Part shown: one piece after another, positions 1,396 to 36,753 of the stretch
How positions within the stretch are numbered: the first letter of the stretch is position 1
Layout of the letters: every line of letters starts with the position of its first letter
Source: Citrobacter phage Shae_phiSM
Length of the DNA: 36,753 nt
Sequence record: OR565851
Strand: one strand, 5' to 3'
The notes under the pieces: generated by a model
What the model saw: the letters and a program-made list of their open reading frames with translations, nothing else
Databases searched by the model: none
Told to the model about the DNA's origin: nothing
Position numbers and translations under genes: made by a program

Positions 1396-1659
1396 GTAAT
1401 CCGCCTCCTTTGGATTAATACGAGTTGATATTTGTGACAAAACATTTTGATTTTATCAGATTTATTTTTATTGATAAGTGTCAATTTATTAGCTGGTATA
1501 TAGAGTGAGGCATATAGAAGGGCTGGTCTGTATCAGTATGTGATGCAAAAATCCCACAGTTTCATGGAATTTTTGCATTTAGAGCTGTGAGATAGGGTGC
1601 CTTATCGACCTTACCCTAGCAACCGATTGACGGGGGATTACTCCCCCGTCGCGGTTTCC

Positions 1660-1800
1660 TTACTGCTTACACTGTAAGAACGCCGCAAACTCCGCTCCCC
1701 AGAAGCTCATCCGTATTTCACACAGCGAACCGTGTAGCATCCAGATGATGAGGATTGCCGTCACGCAGAATGTGATGGCCATAAGCGATTTTTGCGACAT
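1660..1800 (-). CDS. hok: Hok/Gef-family type I toxin-like small membrane peptide (46 aa)
   Basis: Hand translation: MSQKSLMAITFCVTAILIIWMLHGSLCEIRMSFWGAEFAAFLQCKQ. One TM segment followed by SLCEIR...E-x-AAF, matching the Hok/Gef pattern as I remember it; SD AAGGAG 8 nt upstream; perfect hairpin gacggggga-tta-ctcccccgtc at 1629-1650 just past the stop. Below the ORF-track length cutoff. Confidence 0.5.
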   Translation of the reverse strand: MSQKSLMAITFCVTAILIIWMLHGSLCEIRMSFWGAEFAAFLQCKQ

Positions 1801-1930
1801 AGCGCTTGCTCCTTTTTTGGGGAGGCGCTAACCTATCACTTGCTAAGGTTAGATGGTCAGGGCCTCGGTTAAACAGAAATGTTTTCCGGGGCCTTTCCAC
1901 ATCTGGCCTTCGGGCATTCCCTCCGACCAT
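1718..1930 (-). other. overlapping 70-codon frame in mok-like position relative to the hok-like ORF
   Basis: 70-aa ORF starting 130 nt upstream of the hok-like ATG and ending inside it in another frame, like mok in hok/mok/sok loci; no sequence similarity claimed. Confidence 0.25.
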
Positions 1931-1990
1931 CAGCCGAAAGGCACCCGCGCGTAATCTATCGCTTTTTTGTTACTCCGGCAATTCTGCCTG

Positions 1991-9154: not shown

Positions 9155-9190
9155 AAAAACCGCTAATGGTCAGATTAGCGGTTTTCATTT
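9155..9190. terminator. bidirectional rho-independent terminator between convergent U and invertase genes
   Basis: aaaaaccgctaat-ggtcag-attagcggtttt: 12-bp perfect stem flanked by an A-run and a T-run; the invertase stop codon lies in the stem. Confidence 0.7.
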
Positions 9191-9774
9191 TCCTGAGTCT
9201 GCCCGGTTGTTTCTTCAGTCTGTATATCGCCTACAGGGTGATAACGATAAATCGTCGATGTGCCAATGCCGTAAATTATTGCCAGTTGTTTTCTGTCGTG
9301 CCCGTTTTTGATTAGCCTTGCTATTTGCTCATGCTGTTCTTTTGTCAGCTTCGGTCGACGTCCGCCTGTGCGCCCCCTTGCGCGCGCTGCCGCCAGCCCG
9401 GCCAGTGTACGTTCAACAATTAATTCACGTTCCATTTCAGCCAGGGCACCCATCACGTGGAAGAAAAAACGCCCCATTGGAGAAGATGTGTCTATGCTGT
9501 CGGTCAGACTGCGAAAATTAATCCCTCGCTCCCGTAGTTCCCCGACGAGAGAAATCAGATGTTTCATGCTTCGCCCGAGGCGATCCAGTTTCCAGACAAC
9601 CAGCGTGTCACCTTTTTGAAGGCGCTTTAAAGCGCGTTTTAATCCCGGTCGGTCTGTCTTTGTCCCGCTTAATTTATCTTCAAATATTTGTTCACATCCT
9701 GCACAAACAAGAGCGTTTCGTTGCAGGTCTGTATTCTGGTCATTTGTTGATACCCTTACATAGCCAATCAGCAC
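9175..9774 (-). CDS. serine DNA invertase (Gin/Hin/Cin/Pin family)
   Basis: ORF 9175..9792 trimmed to GTG at 9774 (SD GGGAGA upstream); begins LIGYVRVSTNDQNTDLQRNAL... with the catalytic-Ser motif, a resolvase domain and a C-terminal HTH; adjacent to a gix/hix-like crossover site. Confidence 0.9.
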   Translation of the reverse strand: MLIGYVRVSTNDQNTDLQRNALVCAGCEQIFEDKLSGTKTDRPGLKRALKRLQKGDTLVVWKLDRLGRSMKHLISLVGELRERGINFRSLTDSIDTSSPMGRFFFHVMGALAEMERELIVERTLAGLAAARARGRTGGRRPKLTKEQHEQIARLIKNGHDRKQLAIIYGIGTSTIYRYHPVGDIQTEETTGQTQENENR

Positions 9775-9828
9775 ACTGAATCTCCCGTCCAAAAGCGCAA
9801 ATCATGCCATGCAGGCCAGAAACGGCCA

Positions 9829-9854
9829 TTATTTAAAACCTCGGTTTACGAGAA
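9829..9854. repeat. gix/hix-like crossover site 1 (left end of invertible segment)
   Basis: ttatttaaaacctcggtttacgagaa; inverted copy at 12507-12532; shared core aacctcggtttac; resembles invertase crossover sites as I remember them. Confidence 0.75.
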
Positions 9855-10550
9855 CTCGGCACAAGCGGGGAGAAAATACCGTTACTCAGTACAGCGAATA
9901 CCTGGACTAATCGACAAACATTCAGCGGTGGCCTTTCTGGGGAACTGTCCGGCAATGCCGCTACTGCAACAAAGCTGAAAACAGCACGAAAAATTGCTGG
10001 AGTTGGTTTTGATGGTTCTAGCGATATTTCAATTAGTGCCAAAAATGTCAATGCATTTGCACTCCGACAAACAGGTAATACTGTTAATGGTGATACATCC
10101 GTTGGATGGAATTGGGATAGTGGTGCATATAACGCCCTGATTGGTGGTGCATCTGCATTAATTCTTCACTTTAATATAAATGCTGGTAGCTGTCCTGCCG
10201 TACAATTCCGTGTGAATTATAAAAATGGTGGCATTTCCTACAGGTCAGCTCGTGATGGTTATGGGTTTGAATTAGGTTGGTCAGATTTCTATACCACGAC
10301 ACGAAAACCATCAGCGGGAGATGTTGGTGCATATACGCAGGCAGAATGTAACTCAAGGTTTATTACAGGTATTCGCCTTGGCGGTCTGTCATCTGTTCAG
10401 ACATGGAATGGTCCCGGCTGGTCTGACAGGTCAGGTTATGTCGTTACGGGTTCAGTTAACGGAAACCGTGATGAATTAATTGATACAACTCAGGCAAGGC
10501 CAATTCAGTATTGCATTAATGGAACGTGGTATAACGCGGGGAGTATTTAA
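9837..10550 (+). CDS. silent alternative tail-fibre C-terminal cassette (no start; fuses to H on inversion)
   Basis: Frame open from 9837 (just after a stop) through the crossover core to 10550; encodes NLGLRELGTSGEK...SGGLSGE... and ends INGTWYNAGSI, parallel to the current H C-terminus ...INGTWYNVAQV; core ctc-ggt-tta is in the same frame as in H. Confidence 0.7.
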   Translation, partial: NLGLRELGTSGEKIPLLSTANTWTNRQTFSGGLSGELSGNAATATKLKTARKIAGVGFDGSSDISISAKNVNAFALRQTGNTVNGDTSVGWNWDSGAYNALIGGASALILHFNINAGSCPAVQFRVNYKNGGISYRSARDGYGFELGWSDFYTTTRKPSAGDVGAYTQAECNSRFITGIRLGGLSSVQTWNGPGWSDRSGYVVTGSVNGNRDELIDTTQARPIQYCINGTWYNAGSI

Positions 10551-10552
10551 TT

Positions 10553-11086
10553 ATGATGCACTTAAAAAATATTACTGCTGGCAACCCTAAAACAAAAGAG
10601 CAATACCAGCTAACAAAGCAATTTAACATCAAATGGCTTTATACAGAGGATGGGAAAAACTGGTATGAGGAACAAAAGAACTTTCAGCCTGATACGTTGA
10701 AAATGGTCTATGACCACAACGACGTTATTATTTGTATTGAAAAGGATGTTTCAGCAATTAATCCAGAAGGCGCAAGCGTCGTTGAGGTTCCTGATATTAC
10801 AGCAAATCGCCGGGCTGATATTTCGGGTAAATGGATGTTCAAAGATGGCGTAGTGATAAAGCGAACTTATACCGAGGAGGAACAGAGGCAGCAGGCAGAG
10901 AATGAAAAGCAAAGCCTATTGCAACTTGTCAGGGATAAAACCCAGCTATGGGACTCACAGCTACGGCTGGGTATCATTTCCAACGAGAATAAACAAAAAT
11001 TAACCGAGTGGATGCTCTATGCGCAGAAGGTCGAATCCACAGACACCTCCAGCCTGCCAGTAACGTTTCCAGAACAACCAGAATGA
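10553..11086 (+). CDS. tail fibre assembly protein, alternative (silent orientation)
   Basis: 177 aa, [22 protein letters not shown]..., paralogue of the 11115..11642 gene; directly follows the alternative C-terminal cassette. Confidence 0.85.
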   Translation: MMHLKNITAGNPKTKEQYQLTKQFNIKWLYTEDGKNWYEEQKNFQPDTLKMVYDHNDVIICIEKDVSAINPEGASVVEVPDITANRRADISGKWMFKDGVVIKRTYTEEEQRQQAENEKQSLLQLVRDKTQLWDSQLRLGIISNENKQKLTEWMLYAQKVESTDTSSLPVTFPEQPE

Positions 11087-11114
11087 AACAAGGCCCGCTA
11101 TCGGGCCTTAATTT

Positions 11115-11642
11115 TTACTCAGGCTTTTGTGGCCATTCGGGATTTGCTGTATCCACACGGCTGACCAGAACGCTGTAGCGTTCCCATGACTCCAGTCGTG
11201 TGCGTTCCTCATCCGTCGCCATATTCAGCCTGACAGCGCGTTCCAGTGGCTGAATAACGCTTTCAGCTTCAGAAAGCAACGCGACCTTTTGTGATTCGGC
11301 CTGTTGTTGCTGTTCGTCTGCTGTATAAATCCGCTTAAACACAGTTCCGTCCTTAAACATCCACTTCCCTGAATCATCGGCACGACGATTGGCTGTTATA
11401 TCAGGAACTTCAACGACGCTATAGCCTTCAGGGTTAAGCGTGGAGGCATCTTTGGTGATGGCGACAATAATATTATTCTCGTCATAAAGAATTTTTATTG
11501 TGTCTTCCTGAAAGTTCTTTAATTCCTCGTACCAGTTTTTCCCGTCTTCGGACCATAACCAGATAACATCAAAATTCTTTGTTAGCTGATATTGTTCTTT
11601 TGTTTTTGGATTTCCGGACTTAATATTTTTTAAATGCTGCAT
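11115..11642 (-). CDS. G: tail fibre assembly protein (currently expressed orientation)
   Basis: 175 aa, [22 protein letters not shown]...; directly downstream of H. Confidence 0.85.
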
Positions 11643-25776: not shown

Positions 25777-25791
25777 ATGGGTGAAGGAAAG

Positions 25792-26295
25792 ATGACTCTG
25801 GATTCAACAGCGATACAAATCATTAGTAACGTGATAGTCCTGTTTGGCGTCATAGTTGCTATCTGCACGATTATCTATAACATTCGTACAGCCAAAAAAA
25901 CACAGACTGCTAATTTTTTATTTGAAAGTCGCCAGGACAAAGAATACCTGGAATCGCTACATCTTCTCAGACGCATTCATCGTTCAGGAAAATCGTTTCG
26001 TGCTTATGTCTTTCCCTGTGAAGGCGGGGTGATTACGGAAGAAGAGATGACTGAACGTCGCAAATTCCAGTACATTCTTAACTTTTATGAGAGAGTGGCC
26101 GTAAGTATCCGTGAAGGGATTTACGATGAAAGGATGATTAAGCGAACATCCTTTACAACGGTCGTTACGACTTATGATATTGCGGAACCCCTGATTAAAG
26201 CCATCAGAGAGGATACCCAATCAAAAACGGCTTACCAGGAATTTGAGTGGTTGGTGAAGAGATGGAAAGCCAGGCCACTTGAGAAAGATGTGTAG
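25792..26295 (+). CDS. membrane-anchored protein of unknown function (one N-terminal TM helix plus ~130-aa cytoplasmic domain); candidate defence/exclusion cargo
   Basis: ORF 25777..26295 trimmed to the ATG at 25792 (SD AAGGA); TM helix IQIISNVIVLFGVIVAICTIIYNI; about 40% GC; sits where P2 carries old/tin between gene A and the packaging genes. Confidence 0.7.
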   Translation: MTLDSTAIQIISNVIVLFGVIVAICTIIYNIRTAKKTQTANFLFESRQDKEYLESLHLLRRIHRSGKSFRAYVFPCEGGVITEEEMTERRKFQYILNFYERVAVSIREGIYDERMIKRTSFTTVVTTYDIAEPLIKAIREDTQSKTAYQEFEWLVKRWKARPLEKDV

Positions 26296-26385: not shown

Positions 26386-26697
26386 TTATTCGGGAAATAA
26401 CGCCCGGATATTTCCGGCCATCTGACAGGTTATCTGTGCGGTTGGTGCTGGTTGTGATACGGGGCGTTCTGTCCTGGTTTGCGTCAGGGATAACGCTTCA
26501 TCGTCAGCCCATGCAGCCAGTCGGTAAGCCTCTGCCGGATTCATTTTCAGAAGTGCCAGCCCTGCCAGAAAAGCCACGCGTTGGCCACTTTTGCGGGCTT
26601 CTGGTGTAAGGCTGTCCAGCCAGGCGCATGCTTCGCCTTCGTTCTTGACGGCGGCGGGCTTCAGATAGAAACTTATCCGTCTGGTTGGTGTCGTCAT
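26386..26697 (-). CDS. parR: ParR-like centromere-binding adaptor (ribbon-helix-helix)
   Basis: ORF trimmed to ATG 26697 (SD AAGGAG); RRISFYLKPAAVKNEGEACAWLDSLTPEARKSGQRVAFLAGLALL resembles the plasmid R1 ParR N-terminus as I recall it; directly downstream of the parM-like gene. Confidence 0.65.
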   Translation of the reverse strand: MTTPTRRISFYLKPAAVKNEGEACAWLDSLTPEARKSGQRVAFLAGLALLKMNPAEAYRLAAWADDEALSLTQTRTERPVSQPAPTAQITCQMAGNIRALFPE

Positions 26698-26701
26698 TGG
26701 T

Positions 26702-27661
26702 TTACTCCTTGTCCATTGCGTACAGCCCATTAACCAGAGCAAACTGTGGCACCCCGTCCGCGATGAAAGTCGCATTAACTCCGCAGGCTTCGCGGATAGC
26801 GGGTGCCACAATCTCCGCCCCGCCACCGACAACCATCACCCGCCCGTAACCCGAAAAACCCGCCAGCGCGCGGATCACGCGTTGTTTCAGTGTTTCTTCC
26901 TTTTCACGAATAACCGCCATCAGGCTGGCGTAATGCGCGTCATTGTGGATGTGCTGGCGCAACCAGGCTTCATCATGGCGATGTTCGATAATGGTATTGG
27001 CGATGTGGTGACTGGTACGCATACCGTTAGTGGCCATCACCGACAGTACGGCATCGGCCATCAGGGAAACGCCTACGTGTGGATCGCAAAACACCTGGCT
27101 GATACCTGCCAGTTGTCCCTGAACCTTTGCCACATCCAGCGTGGTTCCGCCCAAATCCACAATCAGCAGGGATTCAAACGGACTCATGTCAGCCAGTGCT
27201 TTAAAGCCAGCCGGAATGGATTCAGGCATAACCCGTACATTACGGATAGTGAATGCCTCACCGTTCTGGTACTCCACCGGGCGCATAACGTTCGCTTTTT
27301 TGCGGTTGATGTTGGTCATATCCGGCTGGGCGTTTGTGTCGAAATACTCGCTCAGTGGCAGGGTGACAACAACATCCACCTCCTGTGGCGTGATGCCTGA
27401 TTTGACCAGCGCGTGATGAATGGCAATGACATTCACATCGCTGTACTGGTATTGCGTGTCGGTCGTCTGGACAAAGCGATCGCTGACCGGATCAAAACCA
27501 TAGCGCACGCCATCAAGCATATAGTTCGCGGGCTGCGTGCCACCGAACGGCGCAGACCATTCCGACTTGAAGCTGTTCGGGCTGATGGCGTTGCGGCGTT
27601 CGCCGTTCTCAGTCCATGCCAGCTTGATGTTGGTGGAGCCGTCGTCGATACAAATTTTCAT
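26702..27661 (-). CDS. parM: ParM/StbA-like actin-type segregation ATPase
   Basis: 319 aa; MKICIDDGSTNIKLAW...YSDVNVIAIHHAL...LIVDLGGTTLDV...VMVVGGGAEI matches the ParM actin-fold motifs (R1 ParM begins MLVFIDDGSTNIKLQW from memory); SD AAGGA. Confidence 0.85.
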   Translation of the reverse strand: MKICIDDGSTNIKLAWTENGERRNAISPNSFKSEWSAPFGGTQPANYMLDGVRYGFDPVSDRFVQTTDTQYQYSDVNVIAIHHALVKSGITPQEVDVVVTLPLSEYFDTNAQPDMTNINRKKANVMRPVEYQNGEAFTIRNVRVMPESIPAGFKALADMSPFESLLIVDLGGTTLDVAKVQGQLAGISQVFCDPHVGVSLMADAVLSVMATNGMRTSHHIANTIIEHRHDEAWLRQHIHNDAHYASLMAVIREKEETLKQRVIRALAGFSGYGRVMVVGGGAEIVAPAIREACGVNATFIADGVPQFALVNGLYAMDKE

Positions 27662-31235: not shown

Positions 31236-31411
31236 GGTGTGGCCTCTTTGGTTGTAAGTTTTGAAAACTCACCATCCAGAGGTTCCAAGCTCGGGGTGGT
31301 GAGACGTACAGGGTTGGAACTACCGGCAACCAAAGAACCCGGCCCGACCGAAGTCGGCCCCATACGCCTCACCATAATTCGTGTGCGAAAAAGACGTGGC
31401 GATACGGTACG

Positions 31412-31436
31412 CACAAAAAAACCGCTGGCGCGGTTG
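31412..31436 (-). terminator. possible rho-independent terminator on the minus strand inside a 320-bp structured intergenic region
   Basis: minus-strand accgc-gcca-gcggt followed by T7; stem is short (5 bp). Confidence 0.35.
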
Positions 31437-31555
31437 TGCGCTTTGGTTGTCAGCGGGGTTCCAATCCCGGCACCCGTTTTATGAGGCGCAGCGGAAATGT
31501 AACCTGACTGATTGCGGCATGGCAAGCGGTTTTTTTGTGTGTGCATAGTGGTTAC

Positions 31556-36660: not shown

Positions 36661-36753
36661 TTTTTTCAGATTAAACAGCAGTTTGCAAATGGGCGTTTGT
36701 TAATAAAGGAGCCTTAGATTGTCAGAGACTGAAAAAGGGTTAAAAATCCTTGT

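Follow-up and report, generated by a model that had tools for sequence, protein, structure and literature searches.

A predicted hok/sok-type type I toxin-antitoxin locus beside ogr in a P2-like prophage

A short open reading frame next to ogr raises the question of whether it encodes a toxin of the Hok/Gef family and, if it does, whether the RNA elements of a hok/sok locus can be recognised around it. The window, meaning the whole stretch of 36,753 nucleotides analysed here (Citrobacter phage Shae_phiSM, OR565851), had been read earlier from its letters in a first-pass annotation, which proposed a hok/gef-like gene with a mok-like overlapping frame and a 3' hairpin. Following the analyses described below, we consider that a P2-like prophage very probably carries here, as cargo, a type I toxin-antitoxin locus of the hok/sok type.

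The hok-family toxin gene occupies positions 1660..1800 on the minus strand, and its 46 codons translate to MSQKSLMAITFCVTAILIIWMLHGSLCEIRMSFWGAEFAAFLQCKQ, which is exactly the peptide that had been proposed. A single transmembrane helix covers residues ~6-22 and is followed by the conserved tail SLCEIR...E-x-AAF. The good Shine-Dalgarno (SD) sequence claimed upstream was found as AAGGAG, with GGAG at 1812-1809, 8 nt 5' of the AUG (1800). Alignment of the 46-aa peptide to the Hok/Gef profile, which had been suggested as a check, gave 30.2 bits with Pfam HOK_GEF (PF01848), whose gathering score is 22; the E-value was 3.5e-07, with residues 7-44 aligning with positions 5-42 of the 42 in the profile, and PHROG 251, labelled 'MokW-like host killing', was matched over the full length (E 1.6e-22). 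The 'MokW-like' in this PHROG label derives from hokW-sokW. In a recent catalogue of Hok loci, the residues kept in more than 80% of 1264 peptides are M1, C16, T18, L30, C31, E32 and E41 in the numbering of the logo (bioRxiv 10.1101/2025.08.07.668861, Escalera-Maurer et al., 2026), and all seven are present in our peptide, as M1, C12, T14, L26-C27-E28 and E37. The Pfam score above gathering, the PHROG match and the conserved residues bear out the identification as a Hok/Gef type I toxin, and the profile scores and conserved residues indicate that this family assignment is not due to chance.

Which Hok this peptide resembles most is a separate matter. The top NCBIfam model was HokA, yet the score was far under the equivalog cut-off (NF007290, 33.3 bits versus 89), and the cut-off of the Hok subfamily model NF007279 was not reached either (21.7 bits versus 73). 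In the alignment, the peptide shares 41% identity with K-12 HokA and 28% with HokC, with the LCE and E..A motifs invariant. Because the NCBIfam Hok scores are so far under their cut-offs, the peptide represents a distinct cluster of the Hok/Gef family, referred to below as cluster 72, and is neither HokA nor an orthologue of another studied Hok.

The gene had been described as unannotated, which is true only of the open reading frame track used at that time, since RefSeq WP_000078910.1 is the identical protein at the same position. In E. coli 95NR1 the identical 141-nt gene, also beside ogr, is annotated under this accession as 'Hok/Gef family protein'. The locus is also widely distributed. 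Among 5426 complete E. coli genomes, 1753 contain matches to a 441-nt segment covering it, at a median of one and at most nine places per genome, and further matches occur in 197 phage records; identity to the segment is 94-97% in P88 and other Xuanwuvirus/Peduoviridae phages and 82% in a large group of Stx-converting phages. In the latter phages, the 82%-identical locus is a second hok locus, separate from hokW-sokW. The position of the gene beside ogr is common to many E. coli prophages and to phage P88. No specific report on hok in P2-like phages turned up in a search of the literature.

At a larger scale, 32,532 Hok loci have been catalogued in RefSeq genomes, with 6290 homologs in phages or prophages (10.1101/2025.08.07.668861). 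Table S2 of that work lists cluster 72 as a high-abundance Hok cluster with two tested peptides, 72_1621 and 72_1589 (10.1101/2025.08.07.668861). The first of these is one residue apart from the peptide of the present locus (M7T), and the second is exactly the variant of the Stx phages, 74% identical to the present peptide. The protein catalogued in cluster 72 is thus near-identical to the one described here and the difference is not substantial. The catalogue holds the coding sequence only and leaves Mok, Sok and the mRNA structure unassigned, whereas here these were mapped by prediction. Of 45 Hok homologs tested in E. coli, only 19_179, 60_1482 and 69_1540, all belonging to other clusters, were non-toxic (10.1101/2025.08.07.668861), and both 72_1621 and 72_1589 were in the tested set and are absent from the non-toxic list (10.1101/2025.08.07.668861). 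Because cluster-72 variants were tested and only three other peptides were non-toxic, the toxicity test that had been proposed for the 46-aa frame has in effect been covered by the published data on the M7T variant. The locus is consequently an ordinary, already annotated and catalogued member of the classic Hok/Gef family, and given its RefSeq annotation, its own PHROG family and its catalogued Hok cluster, it matters little as a discovery.

The first-pass annotation had also set the toxin gene beside ogr and at a prophage end. The upstream neighbour is indeed an Ogr/Delta zinc-finger protein gene at 1991-2251 on the minus strand (PF04606, 52.4 bits), and the next gene past ogr encodes the baseplate hub gpD. 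The window is a whole prophage, both of its ends falling inside the 20-bp att core AAAATCCTTGTTGATGAAAA, which lies within the 5' end of pdxB, flk being the neighbour on the opposite side. Another candidate for the attachment site, the 14-mer GTGTCCACGCAGTG found at 63 and 36532, was rejected, the composite empty site having no contiguous match in 5426 genomes. The toxin locus does lie between ogr and att, but not at the very end, because two cargo genes at 165-1440, encoding a zinc-ribbon membrane protein and a VasI/TagO-domain protein, intervene between it and the att core. The hok locus is therefore cargo of a P2-like (P88/Xuanwuvirus-like) prophage, between ogr and att. P88 and several other relatives lack these two cargo genes and have a canonical terminator ~25 nt past fbi, the 3' element described below; no canonical terminator was found 3' of fbi in the window.

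If this is a hok/sok locus, the mRNA should be able to fold back on itself. A hok promoter is predicted at 1953..1981 on the minus strand, with a -35 hexamer TTGCCG (1981-1976), a 17-nt spacer and a -10 hexamer TAGATT (1958-1953), overlapping the last bases after ogr and giving a predicted start site at G1946, 7 nt past the -10. A TAGATT-like -10 is kept in the relatives at the same distance to GGGTGCC, and K-12 hokC has TATAAT. A generic promoter scan did not call this promoter; by our own count its hexamers have 8 of 12 matches, under the cut-off of 9 of 12. The predicted full-length hok mRNA of ~352 nt (1595..1946, minus strand) has the 5' end GGGUGCC, and its 3' end would be at or beyond fbi. 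Its leader was aligned by Rfam RF01794 over the full model, from 1946 to 1812 and thus over the first 135 nt, with 42.7 bits (E 2.3e-07), which is under the gathering score of 59; this model is named sok, but it aligns with the hok leader in the sense orientation.

In the fold of the region 1946-1590, the two ends of the RNA are closed on each other (-162.3 kcal/mol, z = -6.8 versus shuffles). The two sides of this closure are the tac element GGGUGCCUUUCGGC at 1933..1946 and the fbi element GGUCGAUAAGGCACCC at 1595..1610, both on the minus strand, tac pairing with fbi in the full-length mRNA through the complementarity of fbi to the mRNA 5' end. Upstream of fbi, the perfect 9-bp hairpin that had been claimed just past the stop codon was found as described, with arms GACGGGGGA and UCCCCCGUC and loop GUAA, at 1629..1650 on the minus strand and 9 nt after the TAA (1662-1660). 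This 3' stem-loop is the expected protective end of the processed, active mRNA. When the 3' tail was removed in silico up to this stem-loop, two hairpins formed, one from 1946 to 1888 that is closed by tac and another, the target hairpin GAGGC...GCCUC, at 1822..1866 (minus strand) with an apical loop at 1851-1838. In the ensemble fold, the unpaired probability of this apical loop rises from 0.22 in the full-length mRNA to 0.86 in the truncated one. A hairpin at 1802..1826 (minus strand) sequesters the hok SD, pairing the anti-SD CCUCC (1825-1821) with AGGAG (1813-1809).

These structures were compared in a consensus fold of eight relatives, from E. coli, P88, a Stx phage, E. albertii, two Salmonella and C. 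braakii. The tac-fbi helix, the SD/anti-SD hairpin and the 3' stem-loop are all kept, and both-sided changes occur in 17 pairs of the consensus fold. For tac-fbi, the paired columns are 1-7/366-372, which are invariant, and 10-15/357-362. Being invariant, the 7-bp core gives no covariation signal by itself; in the pairs adjoining it, the 3' sequences differ among the relatives and the pairing to the 5' end is kept. Pairs 123-127/147-151 and 130-133/140-143 of the SD hairpin are kept in the relatives, and the 3' stem-loop has compensatory changes, with pair 320/329 being GC in five sequences and AU in three, and 321/328 and 314/335 covarying. These results suggest that the RNA architecture of hok/sok is present at this locus, as predicted by the folding models.

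A Sok-like antisense RNA had been expected and had not been located. A candidate with its own predicted promoter could now be placed at ~1841-1900 on the plus strand. The predicted promoter (1806..1834, plus strand) consists of a -35 hexamer TTGCTC at 1806-1811, a 17-nt spacer and a -10 hexamer TAACCT at 1829-1834. Across 42 distinct relatives the -10 never varies and the -35 reads TTGCTC in 39, so that the hexamers of this promoter are conserved, and its layout matches that of the R1 sok promoter (TTGCGC-17-TATCCT). It was not called by the generic promoter scan. The predicted antitoxin RNA itself (1841..1900, plus strand) is ~57-60 nt long, each end being uncertain by ~3 nt, and was delimited by its fold and by projection from sokC. 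It folds into a 13-nt single-stranded 5' tail, UGCUAAGGUUAGA, a G+C-rich hairpin and then UUUCC (-24.5 kcal/mol, z = -3.7); having only three U after the hairpin, this is a weak terminator. The apical loop of the target hairpin has its exact complement in this 5' tail. The annotated ends of K-12 sokC (RefSeq), projected via the alignment, fall at ~1844 and ~1902, within ~3 nt of those of the predicted RNA.

Sequence variability across the locus is highest over the 20 nt at 1856-1837, inside the 70-codon overlapping frame discussed below, and these correspond exactly to the apical loop of the target together with the 5' tail of the Sok-like RNA; a natural variant reads GUCAAGGUAAUGC where the present sequence has UGCUAAGGUUAGA. 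As part of a rather unlikely reading taken up below, in which the cluster works without a canonical mok, this coincidence suggests diversifying selection for private recognition between toxin mRNA and antitoxin, which might operate among the up to nine matching places in one genome.

With the toxin, the fold-back mRNA and a candidate antitoxin in place, the remaining element of a classic locus is mok. The first-pass annotation had put a 70-codon overlapping frame (1718..1930, minus strand) in the mok position. This frame exists, but it is doubtful as a functional mok and its position is not that of mok, there being no start at the canonical site. The mok frames of R1 and of K-12 hokC both begin shortly after a conserved GAGG, the mok SD, whose counterpart here is at 1866-1863. 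No start codon (ATG, GTG or TTG) was found after this GAGG, the sequence there being CCCUGACCAUCUAACC, and the 70-codon frame begins ~70-100 nt further upstream than the canonical site.

The locus could nevertheless be a canonical hok/mok/sok system in which the frame running from 1930, or from a GUG at 1900, to 1718 is the true mok, its translation opening the SD hairpin and Sok acting by blocking mok. Such a role for mok is known from R1, where mok translation opens the hok SD (PMC9841398). Something must also open the SD here, given that in the ensemble folds its unpaired probability is 0.01 in the full-length mRNA, 0.06 in the truncated mRNA and 0.01 in the Sok-blocked state, and it is thus at least 94% paired throughout the three states. 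The window has the frame open, as do the relative L001 and, of 80 close relatives from IMG/VR, 60, and an SD-like GAAGG precedes overlapping AUG and GUG starts at 1902-1900 and 1900-1898, a start site which the Sok-like RNA abuts. Of 46 distinct sequences, 30 have a frame that runs from one or the other of these two starts at least as far as the hok SD (15 do not, and one has lost the site), several variants with 1-nt indels having the other of the two starts in frame, and in the Citrobacter relative the upstream frame stops in UGAUG on the hok start.

Against a true mok stands, besides the missing start codon at the site homologous to those of R1 and hokC, the ATG at 1930 itself, which falls within the tac helix, 16 nt away from where the mRNA begins, and has no SD. 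Moreover, the frame is closed in six of seven less similar complete relatives, namely P88, the Stx phage, L005, two Salmonella and the Citrobacter relative, E. albertii being the one in which it is open; there is no start either in P88, the Stx-phage variant, the two Salmonella and C. braakii. Of the 80 close IMG/VR relatives, 20 also have it closed, which corresponds to 13 of 38 distinct sequences, likewise without a start, and the stops differ in position; in the S. diarizonae relative the GAAGG/AUG site is deleted. The 1-nt indels and the peak of variability lie inside the frame. One frame of ~33-43 codons would be open with a probability of ~0.1-0.2 according to a rough (61/64)^n estimate for random sequence, and an open frame of this length, expected in ~10-20% of random cases, is therefore unsurprising. 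Because of the patchy openness, the length within reach of chance, and the variability peak and indels inside it, the 70-codon frame does not appear to be a conserved coding feature in these comparisons, and we regard a true mok at this position as possible but somewhat doubtful.

Regarding the start of hok translation, the minimum-energy fold hinted that the hok SD might be freed by 3' truncation without any need for mok; the ensemble (0.01 to 0.06) is against this, and the model was kept only as a possibility. Since the hok SD is paired in every fold, coupling to some upstream frame seems to be needed, and we think that hok translation may still be coupled to some upstream reading frame. That cluster 72 works without a canonical mok, as might be read from the absence of a start after GAGG and from the repeated breakage of the frame in relatives with an intact toxin, is an idea that we hold to be rather unlikely. 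If it were so, hok translation would be gated otherwise, for example by Sok binding that frees the anti-SD CCUCC to hold the SD, or by a switch made of short upstream frames of variable length.

Returning to the preferred reading, a hok/sok-type locus carried as prophage cargo, we infer the following course, covering the ends and 3' processing of the transcript, the way in which the Sok-like RNA acts and how translation starts. The minus strand would be transcribed from ~1946 into a stable mRNA of ~350 nt, in which tac pairs with fbi (1610-1595), so that in the predicted fold the mRNA is closed, with the hok SD paired and the loop targeted by the antisense RNA hidden. Slow trimming of the 3' end to the stem-loop at 1650-1629 would remove fbi, and the trimmed RNA is predicted to refold into the 5' tac hairpin and the target hairpin with its apical loop exposed. 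The plus-strand antisense RNA (~1841-1900), presumably unstable, would pair through its 5' tail with this loop, and the pairing would block expression and probably trigger cleavage of the duplex. Once antisense synthesis stops, the 46-aa Hok would be translated and inserted into the inner membrane, and the cell would be killed or arrested.

The locus might instead be a silent relic, in which the toxin frame is intact and the locus, like several chromosomal hok loci of K-12, is unexpressed or non-lethal, being simply carried along by the prophage. K-12 hokA, the best NCBIfam match, is a precedent, being annotated with a pseudogenised mokA and an IS150 interruption, and the uncertain route to translation, with a patchy mok frame and a paired SD, would fit the same picture. 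The gene here is intact, in contrast to the IS150-disrupted hokA, and none of 78 analysable close relatives has a disrupted toxin frame. From E. coli to Salmonella and Citrobacter the promoter, tac, fbi, the target hairpin, the SD, the toxin frame, the 3' hairpin and the antisense promoter are also intact and conserved, the helices have compensatory changes, and the tested cluster-72 peptides are not on the non-toxic list. We consequently find a relic very improbable.

With the hok/mok/sok (parB) system of plasmid R1, whose paradigm of truncation, refolding and target exposure is summarised in PMC9841398, the locus shares a Hok-family toxin, the tac/fbi fold-back, a 3' stem-loop expected to be protective and a predicted refolding on truncation, as well as an antisense RNA, predicted here, with a single-stranded 5' tail and a hairpin, and a predicted antisense promoter between the target hairpin and the hok start. 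It differs in that the peptide has 46 aa here versus 52 aa in R1, the sequences not being closely similar, in scoring under the Rfam gathering threshold, in having no mok start after GAGG and in being carried by an integrating prophage rather than by a plasmid. The leader of K-12 hokC aligns with that of the present locus, including GGGUGC, GCCCCG and CCGAGGCC, and projection of the annotated ends of sokC leads to the predicted Sok-like RNA, whereas mokC starts 9 nt after its GAGG and there is no such start here. The hokW-sokW locus of the Stx2 prophage Sp5 is likewise a prophage-borne hok/sok, and for that locus toxin and antitoxin function have been proven experimentally (PMC8621323). An identity of the present locus with hokW-sokW was considered and rejected, HokW being a HokD-like peptide of 51 aa with an MKQQKAM start and the leader differing, according to the published primers.

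Regarding the biological role, we infer a selfish module that would serve the prophage in maintenance or exclusion. The alternative is that the locus is no addiction module and acts as a lysis helper on prophage induction or as an abortive-infection defence against other phages. For the lysis helper, hokW-sokW is the precedent: after mitomycin C the sokW RNA of Sp5 disappears and HokW then appears, in a RecA-dependent manner (PMC8621323), and deletion of hokW-sokW halves phage release (PMC8621323). HokW is, however, a different, HokD-like paralogue. For the defence role, R1 hok/sok reduces T4 plating, according to a citation given in PMC8621323, but the catalogue describes hok genes as not enriched beside defence systems (10.1101/2025.08.07.668861). 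The same work reports hok genes as ~four-fold enriched in prophages (10.1101/2025.08.07.668861), in agreement with either of these alternative roles. The prophage also carries ParM/StbB partition-type genes, which fit a theme of maintenance equally well, and the sequence features favour none of addiction, lysis help and exclusion. A role in lysis or defence instead of addiction thus seems to us a reasonable prospect, falling only a little short of even.

The locus serves as a worked example in which a 46-codon type I toxin was recognised correctly from sequence alone. For this prophage cluster, the analysis has added a predicted promoter, the pairing elements tac and fbi, a target hairpin, a candidate Sok-like gene and the limits of the prophage, with the 3' stem-loop now placed within the full anatomy. 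For specialists of type I toxin-antitoxin systems, the apparent lack of a canonical mok and the hypervariable antisense recognition loop are mildly novel. The function of hok genes in prophages is called open in the literature, and this P2-like prophage would be a tractable system in which to test it.

The window corresponds to the entire prophage, because both of its ends fall inside the 20-bp att core AAAATCCTTGTTGATGAAAA, which occupies positions 1-20 and again 36742-36753, where it runs on past the window end. The same core is found at approximately 4985-5005 in L001 and 605-625 in L013, two of the database loci compared. The integration site lies within the 5' end of pdxB, and flk flanks the prophage on its opposite side; the pdxB 5' end annotated in RefSeq is a substitute start (TTG..., LSETEKGLKILVDENMPYA) supplied by the integrase-side prophage end.

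Two cargo genes, both on the minus strand, lie between hok and att (165-1440). The first, at 1063-1440, encodes a zinc-ribbon protein (PHROG 6586) whose C-terminal half is hydrophobic, and the second, at 165-1058, a VasI/TagO-domain protein (PF11319) that RefSeq names 'type VI secretion system-associated protein TagO'. Neither gene is present in phage P88 or in several further relatives; homology to these phages stops at about 1585, and there a canonical terminator is found 3' of fbi, the mRNA element complementary to the 5' end of the hok message.

IMG/VR prophage contigs L016, L030 and L032, together with about 40 other loci, end exactly 3 nt past the hok stop codon. The predicted boundaries of these contigs cut the hok mRNA, with loss of the 3' stem-loop and fbi, and the prophage end is misplaced in these records. 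The same E. coli-phage hok locus, at 72-96% amino-acid identity, was also found in three genome contigs (L004, L005 and L008) from assemblies labelled as a Planococcaceae MAG, Vagococcus sp. and Xanthomonas pisi, most likely as a result of contamination.

Elsewhere in the prophage, a serine invertase gene (Resolvase and HTH_7 domains; 9175-9792, minus strand) adjoins two tail-fibre assembly genes in opposite orientations (10553-11086, plus; 11115-11642, minus), and 9175-11642 looks like an invertible host-range segment. In the early region, adjacent matches above the Rfam gathering scores were obtained on the minus strand for the C4 antisense RNA (31292-31379; RF01695, 84.1 bits) and the Hfq-binding RNA isrK (31415-31489; RF01394, 66.6 bits).

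Profile matches at 26386-27661 (minus strand) identified a ParM/StbA actin-like segregation protein (PF06406 and PF21523, E 3e-82) and a StbB-like 'plasmid stability protein' (PF10784). Adjoining these genes, in a variable region, is a DUF4760 gene (25777-26295, plus strand; PF15956, E 1.7e-35). In plasmid R1, the parB locus is hok/sok and the parA locus is parM/parR; if these identities hold, homologues of both R1 stability systems are present on one integrating P2-like prophage.

Among 43 distinct close relatives the hok toxin gene is nearly invariant, and variability of the locus peaks over 20 nt at mRNA positions 91-110 (window 1837-1856), a stretch that coincides with the target hairpin's apical loop and with the 5' tail of the putative Sok RNA. 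Here the mean minor-allele frequency is 0.13-0.23; most other 10-nt windows show 0.00-0.07, and two further ones reach 0.11-0.12. The pattern may stem from diversification of antitoxin specificity between co-resident copies.
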